From Collinsella aerofaciens (lineage in GTDB: Bacteria; Actinomycetota; Coriobacteriia; Coriobacteriales; Coriobacteriaceae), in NCBI GenBank assembly GCA_048194085.1, contig DBFABM010000020.1, positions 1,692 through 65,691 on the forward strand: a stretch of 64,000 nucleotides of DNA, in the 5' to 3' direction. The translations under genes were made by a program, and so were the position numbers. Below, one piece after another: positions 4,747-56,495 of the stretch. The notes under the pieces were generated by a model, which made no database searches, was not told where the DNA came from, and saw nothing but the letters and a program-made list of their open reading frames with translations. Positions within the stretch are counted from its first letter, which is position 1. Every line of letters begins with the position of its first letter.

Positions 4747-5652
4747 ATGTCCGAGAACGAAGAGATCATGAACGAGACCGAGAACGAGACCATGACTGCC
4801 GAGGTCGAGGCAGTCGAGACCGTGGAGACCGAAGCTGCCGAGGTTGAGGCTGCTGACGAGGTTTCCGCCGAGGAGGAGGCCGAGGTTGTCGAGGCCGCCG
4901 TTGATTACGATGACGAAGAGCTGATGGACAAGATGCAGAAGGCCGCCCGCCTGCTGCGTAGCCGTCGCTTTGCTATTTCTAAGGAGGAGGAGGCCAAGGC
5001 CGAGCGCATGGCGAACATCGAGCGCGCCATCAAGCTTCTTGACCTCAAGCCCAAGATGGAGCAGAAGGAAATGTCCGACCTGCTGGGCATGCGCCTTCGT
5101 GAGCTCGATGGCCTGATGGCCGAGGCCGAGGCTGCCGATCTGGTCGGCCGCATCGACGACGCCGAGGGCGATATGCGCAAGATTGTTGTCTTCGCCGCCG
5201 AGGATGCCGCTGAGGGCCTGGTCGAGCTTGCCAACAAGAAGGAGAAGCTCCTGCCCGAGCTTTCTTACGAGGAGGCCACCGAGCTGATGGCCGCTCTCGA
5301 TAAGGTTATCGCTCCGCTCGTCGCCATGGGCCTGGACGAGGATCGCGGTCCTCGCGGCGGCCGTGACGACCGTGGTGGCCGTGGTGGCGACCGCGGCGGT
5401 CGCGGTGGCGACCGTGGCGGCCGTGGCGGCGATCGTGGCGGTCGCGGTGGCGATCGCGGCGGCCGTGGCGGCTTTGGTGACCGTGGCGGCGACCGTGGCG
5501 GTCGCGGCGGCTTCGGCGGCAACCGTGGTGGCTATGGCGACCGCGGCGGCAACCGTGGCGGCTTCGGCGGCAACCGCGGTAACGACCGCGGCGGTCGCGG
5601 TGGCGATCGTGGCGGCCGCAACGGTGGCGGCTTCCGCGGTAACCGTTTTTAG
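4747..5652 (+). CDS. Charge-segregated protein: acidic N-terminus, MarR-like winged-helix core, (D)RGGRGG-repeat C-terminal tail
   Basis: AAGGAG precedes ATG 4747. Residues 1-60 are E/D/T-rich. The centre looks like a MarR wHTH (KEMSDLLGMRLRELDGLMAEAEAADLVGRIDDAEGDMRKIVV). Residues ~199-301 are almost only R, G and D. Confidence 0.75.
   Translation: MSENEEIMNETENETMTAEVEAVETVETEAAEVEAADEVSAEEEAEVVEAAVDYDDEELMDKMQKAARLLRSRRFAISKEEEAKAERMANIERAIKLLDLKPKMEQKEMSDLLGMRLRELDGLMAEAEAADLVGRIDDAEGDMRKIVVFAAEDAAEGLVELANKKEKLLPELSYEEATELMAALDKVIAPLVAMGLDEDRGPRGGRDDRGGRGGDRGGRGGDRGGRGGDRGGRGGDRGGRGGFGDRGGDRGGRGGFGGNRGGYGDRGGNRGGFGGNRGNDRGGRGGDRGGRNGGGFRGNRF
5341..5649 (+). repeat. In-frame degenerate 21-nt tandem repeats encoding the RGG tail
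   Basis: Repeated GGCGACCG(C/T)GGCGG(T/C)CG(C/T)GGT units translate to GDRGGRG and are in frame with CDS 4747..5652. Confidence 0.85.
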
Positions 5653-7631: not shown

Positions 7632-7668
7632 CAGATTGAACAGCTCGATAAGGTCAGGTGGCAAACTC

Positions 7669-9108
7669 ATGCTTGACTACAATTTGGAAAAACGCGGCGA
7701 AGCATCGCTTTATGAGTATGTTTACCAGCAAATTCGAGATGATATTGTTGCTGGACGTATTGTGGCGGGGGAGCATCTTCCGTCTAAGCGCGCCTTTGCC
7801 AGTCATCTGGGAATCAGTGTCATTACCATCGAGAATGCATATAGCCAGTTACTTGCCGAGGGCTATATTTGCTCAATGCCGCGTCGTGGCTACTACGCTT
7901 GCAAGCTTCCGGATGCACCGGTTTTGCCTTTGGCTTCGCAGGGCATCGACCGAGATACCGTCTCTGTGGGCCTCAGCGCGCATGATGTCAACGGACAGGT
8001 CGAGCTGTTCGATGCACTTTCTCCTTCCGCTTTGGAGGCGGCGCGGCTTTGGCAAAGCGCACTACGGGCGACGCTGGCATCCGAAGATGAGCGCGAAATC
8101 TTTTCGCCCGCACCGGCGCAGGGCACCGCTCGGCTGCGACGCGCAATTGCTCACCACCTGCGTGGGACAAGGGGCATGAATGTCGACCCCAACAACATTG
8201 TTATCGGTGCAGGCGCCCAGCTGCTCGATACCATGTTGGTTCAGTTGCTTGGAGCCGACAAGGTGTATGCCGTTGAGGACCCGGGCTATTTGCGTCTGAC
8301 GCGTATCTATCAGGCTATGGGCTGCAAAGTTCGACATATCCCGTTGGATGACGAGGGCGTGGACTTGAGCACTCTGCAGAAAAGCGGGACCGATGTCCTT
8401 CACCTGATGCCGTCCCATCAGTATCCGACCGGCCTTGTGACGAGCATTGCGCGTCGCTATGCGCTTCTGAGCTGGGCCGCCGAGCGACCAGGTCGGTATC
8501 TCATCGAAGATGACTTTGATTGTGAGTTTCGCCTTGCCGGGAAGCCGATTCCCGCGCTCGCATCGATCGATGCCGCCCAGTCGGTTATCTACACCAACAC
8601 GTTTTCGAAGAGCCTTTCATCGGCGTTGCGTTTGGCGTATATGGTGTTGCCCGATGAGCTAATGGAGCGGTTTAGGCGCAACCTTGGTTTCTACGCCTCG
8701 TCGGTGAGCTCTGTTGACCAGGTCGCTTTGGCGCGTTTGCTGGAATCGGGTGATTACGAGCGACATGTGAACCGCGTGCGCGTTCGTGCTCGCGAGGCGC
8801 GTGATGGCCTGACGTCGCTTGTGCGGAAAGCGTTTCCGGCAGGGGAAGTCTCGATCGAGCAGGCAGATGCGGGCCTTTACTGTACCGTGGTTGCGGAGCG
8901 TGGAACGGGCGGAAGCACTTTTGCACGGGCCCTCACGCGCTCGAGCATCTCTTTTATCGATATCGGTGACTGTTTTTGGTGTGCAGATGGCGCATCTGTC
9001 CCTGAAAACTCAAGTCAAATTCTTGTTCAGTATGACGATTTGAGTCCAAAAGCGCTAAATACCTTGGAATCGCAGCTAATGGGAGCGCTCTGCAATCTAA
9101 GTGAGTAG
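7669..9108 (+). CDS. pdxR: MocR/GntR-family regulator with aminotransferase-like domain (PdxR-like)
   Basis: N-terminal GntR wHTH (LYEYVYQQIRDDIVAGRI..LPSKRAFASHLGISVITIENAY) followed by a class I aminotransferase-fold domain (FSKSL lysine motif). Divergent from pdxST. The last codons and the stop lie inside MITE copy A. Confidence 0.85.
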   Translation: MLDYNLEKRGEASLYEYVYQQIRDDIVAGRIVAGEHLPSKRAFASHLGISVITIENAYSQLLAEGYICSMPRRGYYACKLPDAPVLPLASQGIDRDTVSVGLSAHDVNGQVELFDALSPSALEAARLWQSALRATLASEDEREIFSPAPAQGTARLRRAIAHHLRGTRGMNVDPNNIVIGAGAQLLDTMLVQLLGADKVYAVEDPGYLRLTRIYQAMGCKVRHIPLDDEGVDLSTLQKSGTDVLHLMPSHQYPTGLVTSIARRYALLSWAAERPGRYLIEDDFDCEFRLAGKPIPALASIDAAQSVIYTNTFSKSLSSALRLAYMVLPDELMERFRRNLGFYASSVSSVDQVALARLLESGDYERHVNRVRVRAREARDGLTSLVRKAFPAGEVSIEQADAGLYCTVVAERGTGGSTFARALTRSSISFIDIGDCFWCADGASVPENSSQILVQYDDLSPKALNTLESQLMGALCNLSE

Positions 9109-9217
9109 GCTTTTGGAACTTTGGCGACCAGGCAGTTTTGTAACAAGCTATCTACCTGCGGTTTTGAAAAGCAGGATGACCGGGCTGCTCGGGATGTTCA
9201 AAAAAGTCTACTCACTT
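9099..9217. mobile_element. MITE-like 119-bp element, copy A
   Basis: AAGTGAGTAGGCTTTT...AAAAAGTCTACTCACTT terminal inverted repeats. The conserved centre CTACCTGCGGTTTT is shared with copies at 10519 and 20238. Confidence 0.8.
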
Positions 9218-9400
9218 GTCGCGCAAAGCTTCTGCATGAGAAAAAAATGGGGTTTTCAACAGAACTTCGTCCAGCTCTCGGCAAGCTTTTGGCCAGTTGG
9301 GGAGGACTGTTGAAAACTTGGCAGTCCGTTCGGCACCATTTTTGGCGCGTTCGCGCCAATGCGTGACTGACTGGGTTGAAATTCGTGTTTTCCTGTGCCT

Positions 9401-10528
9401 ATGAAAGATCTACTTTGTGACATATCGGCTTTTAGGTACTGGCGTTTGCCCCCTCAGGTCCGCGCTCTGTGTCCGCCGCTTCCACGACCGGAAGAAGACC
9501 GGCAGCGATATGATCTCGCCCGCAACCCGACGGCTGCGGTCGCGCTCGGTTTTCCGTTGTATACATTGGTTCAGACGAGAAACAAACGGACTTGTCCTGC
9601 CAGCATTAGGCAGCGGCTGTTTCTTGGTGAGCTTCCCAGGGAATCCGTACTGGAAACGGAGCATGGGTTTTTGATTACGTCTCCTCTACTGACGGTATTC
9701 ATCATGTCGCGGCATCTGACGGATCTTCAGCTTCTTTTGGTATTGGCGGAGATGTGTGGCTTGTTTGCGGTGTGCGCTCTGCCTGCGGCACTTGAGGCGG
9801 AGTTTTCGCGTGCAATTGATTCGGGCGCGATCTCGACAACGTTCGGTTGGGTGCGCTGCCCGTCCGAGGACGGCACCGCCTCAAATTTATGGCGTCGAGA
9901 CGCTTTGGTTTTGGGCGGAGACCTTGACCGTTTTTGTTCAGATGTTTGCGGGATACGTTACGGCAATAGATTTAGGACGGTGTCGCAACTCGTTCCATTG
10001 GGTGCCGCGTCGCCTTTTGAGGTCGAGGCGTATTTGCTACTTGCACTGCCGCGATCCCTGGGAGGCGAAGGTTTTTGCGACATAGAGCTTAATGTTGAAG
10101 TGATGCTAAGCACAAGTGCTCGAGCGATTGTGGAAAAGTCCCGTGTATATATCGACATACTTCTGTCTTCGCCGGACGGCAGGCGACAGGTGGCCATTGA
10201 ATGTCAGGGAAAGGCCTCGCACGGACGCGCAGGGGATGGCTTGCGTGACGCTGACCGCATGACGGCCCTTCAGGCCATGGGCTACGATGTGCTTCTCCTG
10301 ACACACAGACAGATATCGGATGAGGATAGATTCCGCGCGATCGTTAAGGCCATATGCAGGATGCTCGATGCTGAATATCGTGATAAAAGCTCAGATGAGC
10401 AAAGGGCTGAGACATTACTCCGGTCTGAACTATTCGTTGACTGGACAAAATTGGGAGTAATCGACGGGAAGATGCCCGTTAGACACAAAACGGCTCAATC
10501 GTGGACGGCTGCGGTTCTAAGTGAGTAG
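9401..10528 (+). CDS. Hypothetical protein with C-terminal Vsr/DUF559-like (PD-(D/E)xK) endonuclease domain
   Basis: ATG 9401. The C-terminus VYIDILLS..RQVAIECQGKASHGRAGDGLRDADRMTALQAMGYDVLLLTHRQI resembles DUF559/very-short-patch-repair endonuclease folds. GC is visibly lower than in the neighbours. The stop codon lies in MITE copy B. Confidence 0.65.
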   Translation: MKDLLCDISAFRYWRLPPQVRALCPPLPRPEEDRQRYDLARNPTAAVALGFPLYTLVQTRNKRTCPASIRQRLFLGELPRESVLETEHGFLITSPLLTVFIMSRHLTDLQLLLVLAEMCGLFAVCALPAALEAEFSRAIDSGAISTTFGWVRCPSEDGTASNLWRRDALVLGGDLDRFCSDVCGIRYGNRFRTVSQLVPLGAASPFEVEAYLLLALPRSLGGEGFCDIELNVEVMLSTSARAIVEKSRVYIDILLSSPDGRRQVAIECQGKASHGRAGDGLRDADRMTALQAMGYDVLLLTHRQISDEDRFRAIVKAICRMLDAEYRDKSSDEQRAETLLRSELFVDWTKLGVIDGKMPVRHKTAQSWTAAVLSE

Positions 10529-10637
10529 ACTTTTGGCACTTTGGTGACCAGGCCGTTTTGCAACAAGTCATTTACCTGCGGCTTTATAAAGCAATATGGG
10601 TGGTGTGCTCGGCAAGTTCCAAAAAGTCTACTCACTT
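10519..10637. mobile_element. MITE-like 119-bp element, copy B
   Basis: AAGTGAGTAGACTTTTGG...CCAAAAAGTCTACTCACTT. Same length and centre as copies A and C, and flanked by TA on both sides. Confidence 0.8.
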
Positions 10638-10701
10638 AGTTTTTGACGAGAAGCCGATGCCGAAGGCGGTCCTATTTTAGGGCGTTAACAAGTTCGTGAG
10701 G

Positions 10702-17432: not shown

Positions 17433-20114
17433 CTAGTCCTCGAGCAGGTCCTCGATAAAGCCGACGCGGTAGTTTTTGAAGATGACCTCGCCACCGTCTT
17501 GCGTGGCGTCCAGATCGACATCGCCCATGATGCCAAAATCGTGGTCGCCATCCTCGTCGGCAAAGATCTGGTGCACGTGCCATACGTGCGCGGTCTTCTC
17601 GCCGGACTCGTCAATGGAAAACATCGCGGCGCTGCGGGCATCTCCGTCGGTGAGGATCTCCTCGTGCTGCTCATGGTAGGCATCGAGCGCCTTTTGCCAG
17701 CGGATTTCGCTCATGCCCCAGTCGTCGTCGAGCTCGCCCAGGTCGCGAACGTGCTCGCGAGCGGCAAGGGTCACGCGGCGGAAGAGCGCGTTGCGCACCA
17801 ACAGCGTGCAGCCGCGGCGGTCCGCCACGACCTCGTCGATGCCCTGCGGCGGCGCGGCGTCGAGGGCTGCCGGGTTGCCGGCGTTCTCCCACTCGTCCAC
17901 CAGGCTCGAGTCCACCGAGCGCACCACAAAGCCCAGCCACGAGATAATGTCGCGCAGGCGCTCGTCGCGCTTCTCGATGGGCACGGTGCGGTCGAGTGAA
18001 CGGTAGGCCTCGGCTAGGTAGCGCAGCAGAATGCCCTCGGAGCGGGCGATGCCGAGCTTTTGAATGTAGCCCTTAAAATCGCTCGCGCTTTCCAGCATAT
18101 CGCGCAGGACGCTCTTGGGAGAGAGCTGATAGTCGTTTGCCCAGGGCACTTCCTGGCAGTACTTGTCAAAGGCGGCGTCGAGCAAATCCTCGAGCGGCTT
18201 TTCGTACGTGACGTCTTGAATGCGCTCCAAGCGCTCCTCATACTCGACGCCGTCAGCCTTCATTTCGGCCATCGCGCGGTCGCGCGCAGCGCGCTCCTGT
18301 GCGCGCAGCACCTGCTTGGGGTCCTCGAGCGTTGCCTCGACCATCGAGATCAGATCCATGGTATAGGTCTCGCTCTCGGGATCGAGCAGCTCCAACGCGG
18401 CAAGCAAGAACGGCGAGAGCGGCTGATCGAGCGCAAAGTCCTCGGGCAGGTCGACCGTTAGCGCATAGTCGATGTCCGGCGCGGCGTCAGTCGGGGCGTC
18501 GGGTGCGGGCGGCACCTCGGTGCGAACGACGACGCCGGAATCGATGAGTGTGGCGAAGATCTCGTCGGCACGAACCTCGAGCTTGGCCTTTTCCTCGGGG
18601 GTCTGCAGGCTCGTCTCGATGAGGTCGTGTACGCGGGTTCGGGCATCGCCGCCCTGCTCGACCACGCTAATCACCATGGAGTGCGTGATGCGCAGGCGCG
18701 GCTTGAGCGTCTCGGGCTGCGTCTCGATCAGGCGCTCAAAGGTCTGCTTGTTCCAGGTGACAAAGCCCTCGGGGGCCTTTTTCTTTTTAATCTTACGGAG
18801 TTTTTTGGGGTCGTCGCCCGCCTTGGCCATGAGCTTGGCGTTCTCGATCTCGTGCTCGGGTGCCTCGGCAATTACCATGCCCTCGGTATCAAAGCCAGAG
18901 CGACCGGCGCGACCGGCGATCTGATGGAACTCGCGGGCGCGCAGGCGACGCATCTTGTAGCCGTCGAACTTGGTGAGCGCGGTGAGCACCACAGTATGGA
19001 TGGGTACGTTGATGCCGACGCCGAGTGTGTCGGTGCCGCAAATGACGGGCAACAGGCCCTGCTGCGCCAGGCGCTCGACCAGTAGGCGATAGCGCGGCAA
19101 CATGCCAGCATGGTGCACGCCGACGCCGCAGCCGAGCAAGCGCTTGAGAATCTTGCCGAAGGCCGTCGAGAAGCTCGTGCCCTTGGCCGCCTCCTTGATG
19201 GCCTCGCGCTGCTCCTTGCTGGCAATGCCAAAGTTGGCGAGCGACTGTGCCGTCGCAAGGGCGGCATCCTGGCTAAAGTGCACGATATAGAGCGGGGCCT
19301 CTCCACGGCGCATGGCGAGCTCGACGGTGCCCTCGAGCGAGGTCGTCACGTAGTCGTAGCTCAGCGGCACGGGGCGCGGGGCATCGACGACTAAGTCGCA
19401 GGTAGCGCCGGTGTGTTCCTCGAGTGAGGCGGCGATGGCAGTGACATCGCCGAGCGTGGCGCTCATGAGCATGAATTGCGTGTGAGGCAGGGTGAGCAGC
19501 GGCACCTGCCAGGCCCAACCGCGATCAGGGTCGGCAAAGTAGTGGAACTCGTCCATGGCGACGCAGCCAACATCGGCATCTTCGCCCTCGCGCAGTGCGT
19601 CGTTGGCAAGGATCTCTGCCGTGCAGCAGATGACGGGCGCCTTGGTGTTGATGTGCGTGTCGCCGGTGATCATACCGACGTTATCGCGGCCGAGCACCTG
19701 TACCAGGTCGAAGAACTTTTCGCTGACCAGAGCCTTGATAGGAGCCGTGTAGTAGCAGCGTTTGCCCTGCGCCATGCCCATAAAGAGCATGCCCAGCGCG
19801 ACGAGCGACTTGCCCGATCCGGTCGGCGTGCCCAAAATGACGTGATCGCCGGCGGCCAGGTCCATGAGGGCCTCTTCTTGGTGATCCCACAGCTCAATGC
19901 CACGGTCGCTCGTCCATTCAAAGAAGCGTTCGAAGGCCTGATCGGGCGTGAGCCATGGTTCGGGCTCACTGCCATCCTCGGGCTCCCACCAGGCGGGGGA
20001 GAGCGCGCCGAGCGAGCCGAACTCGGCTTCGGTTCCCGTGCCGCCCGAGAATGAACTGGCGGCGCCGGCGCCGGAGACGGTGCCGGCGGCGGTATCTGTC
20101 GTGGTCTGTGCCAT
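17433..20114 (-). CDS. Ski2-like DEAD/DEAH-box helicase with DUF3516-type C-terminal region
   Basis: Start ATG 20114 (MAQTTTDT). GTPTGSGKS Walker A, MDEFH, SATLG, QIAGRAGRSG. Long actinobacterial-type C-terminal extension. Confidence 0.85.
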   Translation of the reverse strand: MAQTTTDTAAGTVSGAGAASSFSGGTGTEAEFGSLGALSPAWWEPEDGSEPEPWLTPDQAFERFFEWTSDRGIELWDHQEEALMDLAAGDHVILGTPTGSGKSLVALGMLFMGMAQGKRCYYTAPIKALVSEKFFDLVQVLGRDNVGMITGDTHINTKAPVICCTAEILANDALREGEDADVGCVAMDEFHYFADPDRGWAWQVPLLTLPHTQFMLMSATLGDVTAIAASLEEHTGATCDLVVDAPRPVPLSYDYVTTSLEGTVELAMRRGEAPLYIVHFSQDAALATAQSLANFGIASKEQREAIKEAAKGTSFSTAFGKILKRLLGCGVGVHHAGMLPRYRLLVERLAQQGLLPVICGTDTLGVGINVPIHTVVLTALTKFDGYKMRRLRAREFHQIAGRAGRSGFDTEGMVIAEAPEHEIENAKLMAKAGDDPKKLRKIKKKKAPEGFVTWNKQTFERLIETQPETLKPRLRITHSMVISVVEQGGDARTRVHDLIETSLQTPEEKAKLEVRADEIFATLIDSGVVVRTEVPPAPDAPTDAAPDIDYALTVDLPEDFALDQPLSPFLLAALELLDPESETYTMDLISMVEATLEDPKQVLRAQERAARDRAMAEMKADGVEYEERLERIQDVTYEKPLEDLLDAAFDKYCQEVPWANDYQLSPKSVLRDMLESASDFKGYIQKLGIARSEGILLRYLAEAYRSLDRTVPIEKRDERLRDIISWLGFVVRSVDSSLVDEWENAGNPAALDAAPPQGIDEVVADRRGCTLLVRNALFRRVTLAAREHVRDLGELDDDWGMSEIRWQKALDAYHEQHEEILTDGDARSAAMFSIDESGEKTAHVWHVHQIFADEDGDHDFGIMGDVDLDATQDGGEVIFKNYRVGFIEDLLED

Positions 20115-20237
20115 GTGGTTGCTTTCTCTCGCGATTGTCCGCCAACTATTATGGCGTAGCGGCGGCGTGGGGTGCCAGCGCGCGAGAAAATGCAGGAAAT
20201 GGGCGTTCTGTCCGGCCGTTTGGTGCGGTTGCCAGCT

Positions 20238-20356
20238 AAGTGAGTAGACTTTTTGCGATATTGCGAGCACATGGCTTTTGCGCAAGGGCTCTACCTGCGG
20301 TTTTATGTTTCACTATGCGGGCTGTGCTTGGCTATTGCAAAAAAGTCTACTCACTT
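20238..20356. mobile_element. MITE-like 119-bp element, copy C
   Basis: AAGTGAGTAGACTTTTTGC...GCAAAAAAGTCTACTCACTT, TA-flanked, with centre CTACCTGCGGTTTT. Lies between the helicase start and the trmB stop. Confidence 0.8.
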
Positions 20357-20423
20357 AGGCTTGAGGGCCGTTCGCTGGCGCCTATTTGCGCTTGTTTGCT
20401 GACGCCGCGACCATCAGAGGCCC

Positions 20424-21263
20424 CTAGGACTCTTGTGGCAGGCGCTTCTTGCCTTTGCGGGCGCGGTTTTTAAAGTTCTCGACGGCCTCTTCCATGCCGA
20501 GAGGCACGTAGGTGAGCTCATCGAGGTTATCGGGCAGGTAGCACGCAAGGCTTTGCTCCTGCTCTCGGCCTGCTGCGAGTTGCTCTTCGGTAGGCTTCTC
20601 GCCGGGTGTGGCGCAAATGCCATAGACGGCGGCACCCATCTCGCGCGTGCGGCGCTCGTACTCGGTCTCGGGATGCTTGGGATGGTCGCGGCGGACGTCG
20701 TCGCTTACCCAAAGCGTATCGTAGCCGGCCGCGGCAAACTGTCCCAGGGCGTAATCGCGCAACGGCTTGCTATCGGTGCGCAGTGTGACGGTAGCGCCGG
20801 CTGAAAAGAGCGGGCGGTAGAGCATCAGATGGTCGACATGGACGAGTCGTTTTTTAGCGTACTTGGCCTTGGGCTGCGGCGTGGGAAAGTTAATGGTGAT
20901 GGCATCGAGCTCGCCTGCGGCAAACAGCTGTGGCAGCGATGCGGCGCCTCGGGGCAGGACGAGTGCGTTGGATAGCCCCTGTTCGCAGATTTTCTGCGCG
21001 GCATAGGCGATGCAGATGGGCTCCTGGTCCATGCCGATAAAGAGGGTGTCGGGCTCGCGGTGGGCGCGCTCGACCAGATAGGTTCCCTTGCCACAGCCAA
21101 GATCCAGGTGAAGGTGTTCGAAGGGCCTGCTGCCAGCTGGCGCGCAAGCCTCGCGCCAATCTCCGGCATAAGCCTCGGGGTTCGTCTCAATCGCATCGGC
21201 GTAGCGCTCCAGGCGCTCCTCGAGCACAAAGTTCTTAGGCGTGCGAACGTGGACGGCTCCCAT
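20424..21263 (-). CDS. trmB: tRNA (guanine46-N7)-methyltransferase TrmB
   Basis: LDLGCGKGTYL SAM motif, INFPTPQPKAKYAKKRL and TDS..L motifs typical of TrmB. Confidence 0.85.
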   Translation of the reverse strand: MGAVHVRTPKNFVLEERLERYADAIETNPEAYAGDWREACAPAGSRPFEHLHLDLGCGKGTYLVERAHREPDTLFIGMDQEPICIAYAAQKICEQGLSNALVLPRGAASLPQLFAAGELDAITINFPTPQPKAKYAKKRLVHVDHLMLYRPLFSAGATVTLRTDSKPLRDYALGQFAAAGYDTLWVSDDVRRDHPKHPETEYERRTREMGAAVYGICATPGEKPTEEQLAAGREQEQSLACYLPDNLDELTYVPLGMEEAVENFKNRARKGKKRLPQES

Positions 21264-29574: not shown

Positions 29575-29611
29575 AACCTGCCAAAATAAACCTGTCCCTT
29601 TTTGGCAGGTT
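29575..29611 (-). terminator. Intra-operon hairpin (attenuator/terminator-like) overlapping the ATPase stop codon
   Basis: On the minus strand AACCTGCCAAAA..(13 nt)..TTTTGGCAGGTT followed by TTAT. Lies between the ATPase and helicase genes. Confidence 0.45.
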
Positions 29612-51947: not shown

Positions 51948-52190
51948 CGGGGAAGCCGCGTCCTGCTTTGAAGGCTCGGAACGGGATGTGGTTTCCGAAA
52001 CGGGGGCCGTTGGGAAACTGTGTCCCGGAATGGGCGCTCAGAGTGGGATGCAGTTTCCGCGAGAGACCCGTTGCGGAAACGGTATCCCAGAATCGGCGTT
52101 CAAAACGGGGCGCTCTTTCCGAAACATGGCCCTGAGGGAAGCTGCGTCCCGGTCTGAGTCGGAATTCCGGGACACAGCTTCCCTTTCAAA
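51948..52190. repeat. Four degenerate tandem 62-bp units, each hairpin-forming
   Basis: Units start at 51949, 52011, 52073 and 52135 with (G/C)GGAA(A/G)C.G..TCC. Each ends with TTTCCG-type sequence complementary to its own 5' end. Unit 4 forms a 16/17 stem (52135-52151 with 52166-52182). Confidence 0.7.
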
Positions 52191-52193
52191 CAG

Positions 52194-52237
52194 AAGAAGG
52201 CGCGCTGCCTGCAGTTGATGCAGACGGCGCGCCTTCT
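52194..52237. terminator. Bidirectional hairpin terminator between the antiporter and SDR genes
   Basis: AGAAGGCGCGC (52194-52204) pairs with GCGCGCCTTCT (52227-52237). Inner CTGCA/TGCAG pairing. TTGTT follows. Confidence 0.65.
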
Positions 52238-54840: not shown

Positions 54841-55036
54841 ATGTTTAGCATCAACAACGTACTTAACCGCAGGAGTTTCCTTGTCGGAGCCACGCTTATT
54901 TTTGCCCCGATCTATTACACCCCAGCGTCCGTTTTGCTCAAGAACGCCAAGGACATGAGCTACGACATGACACTAATGGGTGTCGACGGCATGGACAGCC
55001 TATGTGATCCAGGACGGCAAGTACATCGCTTCCTAA
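54841..55036 (+). pseudogene. Collapsed remnant of a paralogous liv-type substrate-binding protein gene
   Basis: RBS and ATG 54841 encode a signal-peptide fragment (NRRSFLVGA). It is fused to IFAPIYYTPASVLLKNAKDMSYD..MGVDGMD, which matches residues of the intact SBP at 55308..56495 (about 80 % nt identity by eye with 56031-56130). An out-of-frame YVIQDGKYIAS* then matches the SBP C-terminus YVITDGKYVQA*. Confidence 0.8.
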
Positions 55037-55307: not shown

Positions 55308-56495
55308 ATGTCGAGCCTCACCGGTAAGTCATTGAACCCTGTTATGAATCGCAGGAGCGTTATCGCGAGCGCAGCAGGTCTGGGGGCGATGTCCATTCTA
55401 GCTGGTTGCTCCTCCAACGGCGGCGACAGCGGTTCCGCTTCGAGCGACGCTTCGTTTAAGATCGGTACCATCGGCCCGCTGACCGGCGCCAACGCGTCCT
55501 ACGGCAAGTCCGTTACCCAGGGTGTCGAGCTTGGCTGCAAGGATTTCTCGACCAAGGAGCTGCCGCTTGCCAGCAAGGCCGAGGATGACCAGGCCGATGG
55601 CGAGAAGGCCGTCAACGCCTTCAACACCCTGCTCGACTGGGGCATGCAGGCCCTCGTCGGTCCGACCACCACGGGTGCGTCGGTTGCCGTTGCCGCCGAG
55701 TGCGGTAACGACCCCAAGACGTTCATGATCACCCCGTCCGCGTCCTCCGAGGACGTCACCGACGGCAAGGATTGCGTCTTCCAGGTTTGCTTCACCGACC
55801 CCAACCAGGGTGTCAACGCTGCCAAGTTCCTGGCGCAGAAGTATGCGGACGAGAAGTTCGTGCTGTTCTATAACTCCGGCGACGCATATTCTTCGGGCAT
55901 CGCAGATTCCTTTAAGGCCCAGGCTGCTGAGTCCAAGCTCGAGATTGTTGACGAGGAGACCTTTAAGGACGACTCCGCCACGAGCTTTACGAACCAGCTG
56001 ACCAAGGCCAAGCAGGCCGGCGCCACCATGATCTTTGCGCCGATCTACTACACGCCGGCGTCCGTCCTGCTCAAGAACGCCAAGGACATGGGCTACGACG
56101 TCAAGATGATGGGCTGCGACGGCATGGACGGCATCCTGGGCGTTGAGGGCTTCGATACCTCTCTTGCTGAGGGTCTGCTGCTCATGACCCCGTTCTCCGT
56201 CGACGATGAGAAGAACGCCGACTTCGTCAACGCTTACAAGGATAAGTACGGCGATACCCCCGACCAGTTTGCCGCCGACGCCTACGATGGCGTGCACGCG
56301 GTGGCCGAGGCCCTCAAGGAGGCCGGTCTTGGTGTCGACGCCGACCCGACCGAGGCCGCCGAGAAGCTGTCCAAGGCTATGCTCAAGATTACCGTTGACG
56401 GTCTGACCGGCAAGCTCACCTGGAACGATAAGGGCCAGGTCCAGAAGGAGCCCACGACGTACGTCATCACCGACGGCAAGTACGTACAGGCCTAA
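55308..56495 (+). CDS. Branched-chain amino acid (HAAT-family) ABC transporter substrate-binding lipoprotein
   Basis: GAGAGGAG RBS. Tat/lipobox-like N-terminus (NRRSVIASAAGLGAMSILAGCSS). Leu/Ile/Val-binding-protein fold motifs (IGTIGPLTG, GPTTTGAS). Confidence 0.9.
   Translation: MSSLTGKSLNPVMNRRSVIASAAGLGAMSILAGCSSNGGDSGSASSDASFKIGTIGPLTGANASYGKSVTQGVELGCKDFSTKELPLASKAEDDQADGEKAVNAFNTLLDWGMQALVGPTTTGASVAVAAECGNDPKTFMITPSASSEDVTDGKDCVFQVCFTDPNQGVNAAKFLAQKYADEKFVLFYNSGDAYSSGIADSFKAQAAESKLEIVDEETFKDDSATSFTNQLTKAKQAGATMIFAPIYYTPASVLLKNAKDMGYDVKMMGCDGMDGILGVEGFDTSLAEGLLLMTPFSVDDEKNADFVNAYKDKYGDTPDQFAADAYDGVHAVAEALKEAGLGVDADPTEAAEKLSKAMLKITVDGLTGKLTWNDKGQVQKEPTTYVITDGKYVQA

Follow-up and report, generated by a model that had tools for sequence, protein, structure and literature searches.

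Introduction

Several families of short palindromic repeats from bacterial intergenic DNA have been described: Correia, ERIC and RUP elements combine terminal inverted repeats (TIRs), TA termini and long stem-loops, both RUP and the Correia element of 155 bp also have a stop codon in every frame, and ERIC affects mRNA stability (PMC2229807). Here we describe a 119-bp palindromic repeat of Collinsella aerofaciens, three copies of which (A, B and C) lie in a stretch of 64,000 nt on contig DBFABM010000020.1; this stretch is called the window, and positions given without a locus label are in its numbering. The general kind to which the repeat belongs is therefore familiar, since it shares TIRs, TA termini and stem-loops with Correia, ERIC and RUP. 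[quoted passage not shown] What distinguishes it is the combination of frozen termini, all of whose stop codons are used, interiors that are nearly random in sequence and exact in length, and an apex that is a natural target of an IS110-family insertion sequence (IS). With moderate confidence, we read it as an old, low-copy, non-coding family of the C. aerofaciens group, of the MITE/ERIC/REP-like kind, that spread mostly before the group radiated and has been kept for a function or through recognition.

The likeness to each known system has its limits. ERIC (also IRU, 127 bp) resembles the Collinsella repeat in being an imperfect, non-coding palindrome of about 120–127 bp, of low to moderate copy number and with a long predicted stem-loop, that lies in transcribed intergenic DNA at gene ends and is strongly conserved across related species. 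However, the two have no sequence relationship, the host here belongs to the Actinomycetota, the perfect terminal repeat measures 16 bp as against 7 bp in ERIC, and the Collinsella repeat has a three-frame stop string at its very ends and about six copies at fixed orthologous loci, with a putative effect on RNA. RUP of the pneumococcus (107 bp) and Correia/NEMIS of Neisseria are similar in their TIRs, TA-like termini, hairpin potential and, for RUP and the 155-bp Correia element, all-frame stops, and their insertion at gene ends can alter C-termini (PMC2229807). They differ in that their copies number about 100 or more, their TA duplications are clear and, for RUP, IS630-Spn1 is the identified partner, three features none of which was found for the Collinsella repeat. 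REP/BIME and REPIN-RAYT repeats are likewise palindromic, intergenic and vertically persisting, with specific conserved bases that include a GTAG also present in the conserved Collinsella terminus, and IS110-family elements such as IS621 and ISPpu10 insert into REPs by preference (PMC11208160; bioRxiv 10.64898/2026.03.19.712850). REPs, however, are 20–40 bp long, with a small hairpin of their own, and usually number hundreds of copies, whereas the arms of the Collinsella repeat are without an internal hairpin. Finally, the attC sites of integrons, such as the Vibrio VCRs, resemble the Collinsella repeat as imperfect palindromes, about 120 bp in length, in which two inverted-repeat pairs are nested and the spacers vary; they too follow open reading frames (ORFs), and some IS1111-type elements target them. 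In contrast to attC, the Collinsella termini are without the R''/R' cores (RYYYAAC / GTTRRRY), and the copies are scattered over the chromosome, with neither an array nor an integrase.

The genus Collinsella is abundant in the human gut and has been heavily over-split. A literature search on Collinsella MITEs and on the terminus core strings found no repeat family described for it. An earlier note on this DNA had not recognized the element among the described families, and there was no Rfam match at gathering score over the whole window.

Results and discussion

Copies A, B and C

The earlier note had reported three copies of exactly 119 bp, and they were found precisely where it had placed them, all on the plus strand: copy A (site S5A) at 9099–9217, copy B (site S3B) at 10519–10637 and copy C (site S4C) at 20238–20356. 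All three possess inverted termini, as claimed there, in the form of near-perfect 16-bp TIRs. The left TIR of copy B, AAGTGAGTAGACTTTT, lies at 10519–10534 on the plus strand, with equivalents at 9099–9114 in A (one mismatch) and 20238–20253 in C, and the right TIR lies on the minus strand at 10622–10637 in B, 9202–9217 in A and 20341–20356 in C; read directly from the three copies, the ends are AAGTGAGTAGAC and GTCTACTCACTT. Six occurrences of AAGTGAGTAGACTTTT in the window at up to one mismatch compare with 0.1 expected by chance. No seventh was present at this threshold, and a search of the window with a hidden Markov model (HMM) of the family returned no copy beyond A, B and C. The flanks are also as described previously, with TA on both sides of copies B and C (cTA...TAg, followed in B by TTTTT) and TG in place of TA on the right of copy A.

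The common centre noted earlier is indeed present in all three copies as an asymmetric apex motif, ACCTGCGG(C/T)TTT, on the plus strand at the dyad axis (9154–9165 in A, 10574–10585 in B and 20293–20304 in C). The accompanying claim that the rest of the element is diverged applies to the spacers but not to the whole, because a second conserved inverted pair, with the consensus CGA(G/C)CA(C)/GTGCTCG, sits at element positions 27–33 and 87–93. In copy B the left arm of this inner repeat is TGACCAG, at 10545–10551 on the plus strand, and it pairs with GTGCTCG at 10605–10611.

A low-copy family at fixed orthologous sites

Further copies were sought in two scans. The first, of one genome per species with a single terminus as query, gave at least 119 loci, all from Collinsella or Coriobacteriaceae and mostly from metagenome-assembled genomes (MAGs) of the C. 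aerofaciens complex, with one Oscillospiraceae and one 'uncultured bacterium' among the contig labels. The second, of metagenomes with both 10-mers as query, gave at least 120 loci, those records with a description being assemblies from the human gut. Together the scans yielded at least 287 paired elements, of which 263 measure 119 bp, 17 measure 120 bp, six 118 bp and one 115 bp. When these 287 copies were clustered by their flanks, they fell into about eight loci, comprising six orthologous fixed sites, three of which lie in the window, and two rare ones (S8, in four loci, and N1, in one). Across all eight, similarity between unrelated loci ends exactly at the termini. Site S5 (copy A) is orthologous in 49 other loci, with elements of 118–120 bp, S3 (copy B) in 55 loci and S4 (copy C) in 39; outside the window, S1 has a HAD hydrolase gene on one side and a gene for a membrane protein on the other, S2 separates two convergent genes, one for a 'lipopolysaccharide biosynthesis protein' and one for a metallophosphoesterase, and S7 lies downstream of an ABC permease gene, where it adjoins a LuxR-type gene. 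All loci with the A/B region match the window collinearly, at 87–97% identity, and have both copies, and the six major sites were always filled, with no empty form among about 260 loci, or about 2 Mb of Collinsella DNA.

The repeat has the generic traits of a MITE in that it is shorter than 300 bp, non-coding, bounded by TIRs and present in dispersed copies. A high copy number was not borne out: there are about six fixed sites plus the rare ones, and a 900-kb replicon of C. aerofaciens TSDC17.2-1.1 holds only two copies (at S2 and S7), which are 468 kb apart and neither of which is annotated. We conclude that the family is low-copy, with about six copies per genome as estimated from pooled genomes, and largely fixed at orthologous sites; it is a mostly sedentary family and not a proliferating MITE. 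The six fixed copies could serve as landmarks for strain typing. An internal ATG-initiated mini-ORF was considered as a gene and rejected, as neither its frame nor its presence is conserved across sites on reading of the alignment.

Two observations concern individual loci. Listed as 'plasmid 6' (PLSDB NZ_OY725717.1; loci L265 and L266), the TSDC17.2-1.1 replicon has pckA and other housekeeping genes and is probably a segment of the chromosome labelled as a plasmid. Locus L161 contains a segmental duplication, with two S2 copies (4850–4968 and 7869–7987) that share their flanks and lie 3 kb from each other.

Constraint on the termini and apex

The site consensus consists of conserved blocks, namely the 16-bp termini, the inner inverted pair and the apex, which reads ACC-TGC-GGT and then TTTT at positions 56–67, separated by spacers that are fixed in length and free in sequence. 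Interiors from different main sites have a median identity of only 48–61% (76% for A against B), while whole elements within a site average 88–93% and interiors within S1 average 85%. Within-site nucleotide diversity, given as the mean over five sites, is 0.003 at positions 1–10 and 110–119, 0.043 at the apex and 0.12–0.16 in the spacers (0.04–0.16 over the interior as a whole), as compared with 0.05–0.2 in flanking DNA. As the scans themselves selected intact termini, constraint was measured again on 196 ends whose locus could be found via another end. In these bias-free ends the mismatch rate was 0–1% per position across AAGTGAGTAG, and the T at position −1 differed in 25%; over the 1,960 terminal positions about four mismatches were seen, where the diversity values lead one to expect roughly 150 at the interior rate. 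Since the preceding T varies while the termini remain so nearly free of mismatches, constraint must begin sharply at the first A of AAGTGAGTAG. Indeed, the first 10 nt of the terminus are invariant across sites and species. These data show that termini and apex have been under strong, sequence-specific constraint after fixation, and that this acts on base identity and not merely on pairing. Frozen ends around an interior that has drifted almost to randomness point to a recognizing factor.

Some exchange between sites is apparent. Certain S5A copies (L053 and L080) bear a right half of the S3B type, and one S7 copy (L244), possibly an assembly chimera, bears a right half of the S5A type; such mosaics reflect either gene conversion or chimeric assembly, and it is likely that the copies themselves give rise to broken contigs and chimeras in the MAGs of Collinsella. 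The rare site S8 is absent from most genomes, and its interior is 87–92% identical to particular S1 copies, that is, inside the diversity of S1 itself. As its flanks are unrelated to those of S1, this points to a copying event within the species complex.

Element ends as frame-independent stops

The terminus C-TAA-G-TGA-G-TAG offers one stop per reading frame, as had been proposed from copies A to C. The string TAA-G-TGA-G-TAG occupies 9098–9108 in A, 10518–10528 in B and 20237–20247 in C on the plus strand and has mirror images on the minus strand at 10628–10638 (B) and 20347–20357 (C); the right end of copy A retains only its TGA and TAG. The chance that a random 12-mer at 60% GC holds stops in all three frames is about 8.5e-5.

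Two of the copies supply the stop codons of real genes, again in agreement with the earlier note. The ORF at 7636–9108 on the plus strand, which encodes a MocR-type protein (GntR plus aminotransferase), and the 377-aa ORF at 9395–10528, also on the plus strand and situated between copies A and B, end at the left-terminus TAG of A and B, respectively, and both products finish in ...LSE*. In orthologues of the MocR-type gene at S5A the stop is TAG in 28 loci, TGA in 16 and TAA in two, always within the same terminus, and the frame differs between lineages owing to indels in a G-run just upstream of it; at S3B, TAG is used in 49 loci and TAA in one. Protein databases hold ...ARI* and ...LQI* forms alongside the ...LSE* forms. 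All three stops of the terminus are thus demonstrably used in nature, at a single gene end, and the element ends are shown to act as frame-independent translation stops at two genes, which makes them a compact natural example of a terminus that halts translation in every frame. The remaining ten ends of the six major sites terminate no real gene, and for this reason the stops alone cannot explain why all ends are invariant. In locus L041 (502–555) the left part of copy A has been replaced, together with the MocR gene, by other DNA.

Copy C lies between two minus-strand genes and, judged by the orientation of its apex motif, is antisense to both. A TrmB-like methyltransferase gene (20424–21263) is transcriptionally upstream, with its stop 67 bp from the element, and an ORF for a DEAD/DUF3516 helicase (17433–20285) lies downstream; the listed TTG start of the latter falls inside the element, and its true start is probably further in.

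An IS110-family element inserts at the apex

The family HMM also turned up half elements. At S4 in five genomes (L009, L098, L099, L109 and L201) the left half stops at ...CTACCTGC and continues as ACTGATAATTGT..., and at S2 in two genomes (L051 and L057) GGTTTT... and the right half follow directly on foreign DNA whose last letters are ...CTTATAGGAGCGTC. Both ends of the insert are present on a 4.7-kb contig, L263, which carries an IS110-family IS at L263:6–4085; the contig opens with CCTGC|ACTGATAATTG, and the right junction reads ...ATAGGAGCGTC|GGTTTT. Its transposase has DEDD_Tnp_IS110 and Transposase_20 domains and a C-terminal XRE-type helix-turn-helix, and is interrupted by a nested IS21 (istA/istB). 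The left junction, ...ACCTGC|ACTGATAATTG, was seen in five loci plus L263 and the right junction, ...ATAGGAGCGTC|GGTTTT, in L051, L057, L263 and L264. The IS inserts at ACCTGC^GGTTTT, about one base from the dyad axis, in one orientation and with neither duplication nor loss. No copy in the window is interrupted by it, and the corresponding points would be 9159/9160 in A, 10579/10580 in B and 20298/20299 in C.

A second family of palindromes, of about 165 bp, has different and longer termini (AATACTTTTCCGCGAAGTGAACGA) and the same apex (TTTACCTGCGGTTTT), with a second CCTGCG(A/G)TTT motif about 20 nt from the first. It is intact at L220:3880–4060 and at about L125:775–950, and its right half follows the IS at L263:4086–4180. 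The IS is accordingly flanked by halves of the first family at S4 and S2, whereas in L263 its neighbour is a half of the second family and in L264 a third sequence. Since the same IS inserts between ACCTGC and GGTTTT in both families, this arrangement shows that the palindromes are targets of the IS110 element and not its ends, in keeping with the known preference of IS110-family elements for REPs and for conserved intergenic repeats that bear stem-loops (PMC11208160; bioRxiv 10.64898/2026.03.19.712850). The opposite view, that the 119-bp unit is the fused ends or the footprint of an IS110 element inside some copies, would account for the exactly central position of the IS and for halves that flank it as ends would. 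However, the ends of the IS are the same wherever both are seen (91–100% identical) and yet the flanking halves differ by family, the joined halves restore ACCTGC|GGTTTT with nothing lost or added, and IS110 elements excise scarlessly and are without TIRs (PMC11208160), so that we regard this explanation as effectively refuted, with scarcely any probability left to it.

The left non-coding end of the IS holds TGACCTGC, which matches the left target, and ATAGGAGC, which matches the right IS end, in a register that is off by 3 nt. By their sequence these two 8-mers are suggestive of bridge-RNA guides; an Rfam search of the left end gave no match of the bridge-RNA type and, as its sole hit, a chance-level C/D-box snoRNA (E 0.15). 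The repeat is a natural target of an IS110-family element, of the bridge-RNA type, in an actinobacterial gut commensal, and it adds a structured palindromic IS110 target outside the proteobacterial REPs. Viral contigs contained no match to either end of the IS and only six single, unpaired, chance-like matches to the 16-mer terminus of the repeat, and a phage collection gave no match.

Flanks, empty sites and the question of an IS630 origin

The earlier note had judged the flanks to fit a TA target duplication as in MITEs derived from the IS630/Tc1-mariner group. Such a MITE would insert at the TA of CTAG, duplicate it and be mobilized in trans by an IS630-family transposase with the same termini. 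We consider such an origin unlikely, although a number of features are in its favour. Flanks of the form C-T|A...T|A-G mark most ends, being found at S2, S3, S4 and S8 and in parts of S1, S5 and S7, CT/AG flanks are present at least in part on seven of eight left sides and six of eight right sides, the size, TIRs and lack of coding capacity fit a MITE, S8 is a recent copy of the S1 type in a new position, and RUP is a precedent for a bacterial MITE with TA targets mobilized by IS630 (PMC2229807). Against this, the flanking T and A, which could mark a target duplication or an extension of the TIR, are not consistently present: at N1 and in most S7 copies both ends are of the CA...TG form, the right A is always missing at S5 and the left T mostly missing at S1, and the first A of the supposed duplication is invariant where the T is variable. 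The link to IS630/Tc1 is therefore a resemblance, through the CTAG-like flanks, and not a result.

Comparison of filled and empty sites, from which the earlier note had hoped to confirm the duplication, produced no clean pair. Sixteen loci empty at S8, found via homologues of a GNAT gene, are without a whole 367-bp block, in which the element is accompanied by 154 bp to one side and 93 bp to the other. A relic of another apex motif lies in the 154-bp part, the intergenic DNA here is a patchwork of another repeat, and a second, unrelated repeat varies from one empty locus to the next. Nor was a mobilizing partner in evidence. Among the 119 single-terminus loci listed, in a scan that did not extend to complete genomes, there was no autonomous IS, no IS630-type transposase bounded by the same TIR and no other ORF-bearing element with these termini; nor did any appear among about 240 terminus-selected loci, and no IS630 element was seen adjoining the termini in about 2 Mb of Collinsella DNA. 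The copy number of about six, at fixed sites, also fits poorly with this model. The solo-terminus matches proved to be truncations, IS110 interruptions or a chance-like match with three mismatches. The last of these, 882 bp from S1, was rejected as a terminus because it is a three-mismatch string at the stop of a SIS gene, and the intervening gene encodes a HAD hydrolase and not a transposase.

The 377-aa protein between copies A and B

The 377-aa gene, a single-copy gene that copies A and B bracket in every case, recalls RAYT genes. The elements might act in cis as modules that a dedicated protein recognizes, much as in REPIN-RAYT, with the 377-aa protein as the candidate partner. The constraint described above, which is sequence-specific, independent of orientation and sharply confined to the apex and the outer 10 bp, favours such a partnership. 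In addition, the bracketing copies are the two most similar ones and also exchange sequence, and the protein family was found only in Collinsella, with 188 database hits, of which the 120 listed are all at least 81% identical. The protein has a match to REase_MTES_1575 (Vsr/DUF559-like), but this is weak, at 26.3 bits against a Pfam threshold of 38.2. Unlike RAYTs, the gene flanked by A and B, the sole gene checked in this respect, has no Y1/HUH RAYT domain, and no transposase, HUH or Y1_Tnp domain was found in its product; PDB and PADLOC gave no matches, and the AlphaFold model (pLDDT 36) is uninformative. Moreover, gene and repeats are both fixed, so that there is no co-variation in presence and absence to compare, and the bracketing could have arisen from two insertions around a horizontally acquired gene. 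On balance we think a partnership of this kind quite unlikely. A more elaborate version, in which the elements are maintained modules of 'gene-end punctuation' partnered with a 377-aa protein of the PD-(D/E)xK type, the termini being recognized or cleaved by it and the apex acting as a structural landmark, is more speculative and in our view distinctly improbable. If true, it would amount to a symbiosis like that of REPIN and RAYT built on a different enzyme class.

RNA folding and the probable role of the repeat

The long hairpin foreseen in the earlier note is supported by folding of the plus strand, with predicted energies of −44 to −55 kcal/mol (z = −4.2 to −7.9). Its suggestion of a terminator was not, as no canonical terminator (a short stem and T-run) was detected in the elements. 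A promoter scan of the elements was negative, no tRNA or tmRNA was found, and Rfam at E values up to 5 gave only chance-level hits (sX4 and mir-86).

Our current working hypothesis is that the repeat was once a non-autonomous mobile unit, moved by a transposase, and that it spread in discrete units of 119 bp to the 3' ends of genes and to intergenic DNA, for the most part ahead of the radiation of the species complex. Some six copies would now be inherited vertically at fixed loci, with new copies, such as those at S8 and N1, arising rarely. Because each terminus reads TAA-G-TGA-G-TAG, any ORF that enters an element stops within 11 nt in whatever frame, which would make insertion at a gene end harmless and buffer later frameshifts. 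The elements may have been kept through use to the host or through recognition by a protein. By analogy with ERIC and REP, their likeliest role would be co-transcription with the upstream gene to give a long hairpin that marks or protects the 3' end of the mRNA; we consider this the most economical proposal because of the position at gene 3' ends and the fold. Sequence-specific recognition of the ends by a protein is a further possibility.

Several results weigh against this hypothesis. No clean filled/empty pair, consistent target duplication or autonomous partner was found, for which reason past transposition is inferred and not shown, and the figure of six copies is pooled from many genomes and does not come from one complete genome. 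On the side of function, the elements show no T-run terminator signature, and RNAalifold on 111 distinct copies recovered the terminal and inner helices with only two covarying pairs. Orientation with respect to flanking transcription is mixed (roughly three sense and three antisense), which makes an orientation-dependent RNA role of the apex motif unlikely. The invariance of bases, as opposed to that of pairing, argues for recognition at the level of protein and DNA over a simple RNA hairpin. Taken together, invariant bases, mixed orientation and the missing terminator signature leave room for a DNA-reading protein.

The same data bear on whether the copies are sibling small RNA or structured RNA genes, with the terminal stem as closing helix and the apex as functional loop. 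Fixed length, a conserved apex, strong predicted folds and a low copy number typical of sibling small RNAs are all compatible with such genes. We nevertheless judge this explanation very improbable, given that there is no Rfam match even at the relaxed E value, that only two pairs covary, that the search for promoters gave no candidate and the left flanks of different sites are unrelated, that orientation is mixed with respect to both neighbouring genes and GC skew, and that two copies overlap the stop codons of upstream genes. The imbalance of G-T over A-C mispairs (828 against 651) also tells against RNA genes, as it tracks strand composition and not transcription, and it was discarded as a mark of selection on a single strand. 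Two other leads were also dropped. Selection on a single strand, as judged by GC skew, yielded no rule, with four sites positive and two negative (S7 weakly so), and the likeness of ACCTGCGGTT to the 3' end of Escherichia coli 16S rRNA was set aside as coincidence, the actinobacterial 16S sequence differing from that of E. coli at this point.

Other repeats in the window and the loci

The window and the loci also contain other repeats. One, unrelated to the 119-bp family, is a small palindromic intergenic repeat of Collinsella of the form ACCT(G/A)CCAAAATAAACCTGTCCC...GG(T/C)AGGT, seen at 29581–29598 in the window and at L007:3760–3800, L049:7140–7185 and L028:3985–4030; in L049 it overlaps the stop of a GNAT gene and is variable between strains at that locus. 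A tandem array at 5303–5639, with alternating 9- and 12-nt spacing and 21 overlapping register copies of 61–76% identity, looks like a coding repeat. Intergenic DNA at 51990–52200 is rich in GGAAAC/GTTTCC and forms inverted arms of 68 nt, 74% complementary and 36 nt apart. Lastly, a pair of 115-nt direct repeats with 81% identity lies at 54885–54999 and 56018–56132, at a spacing of 1.1 kb.

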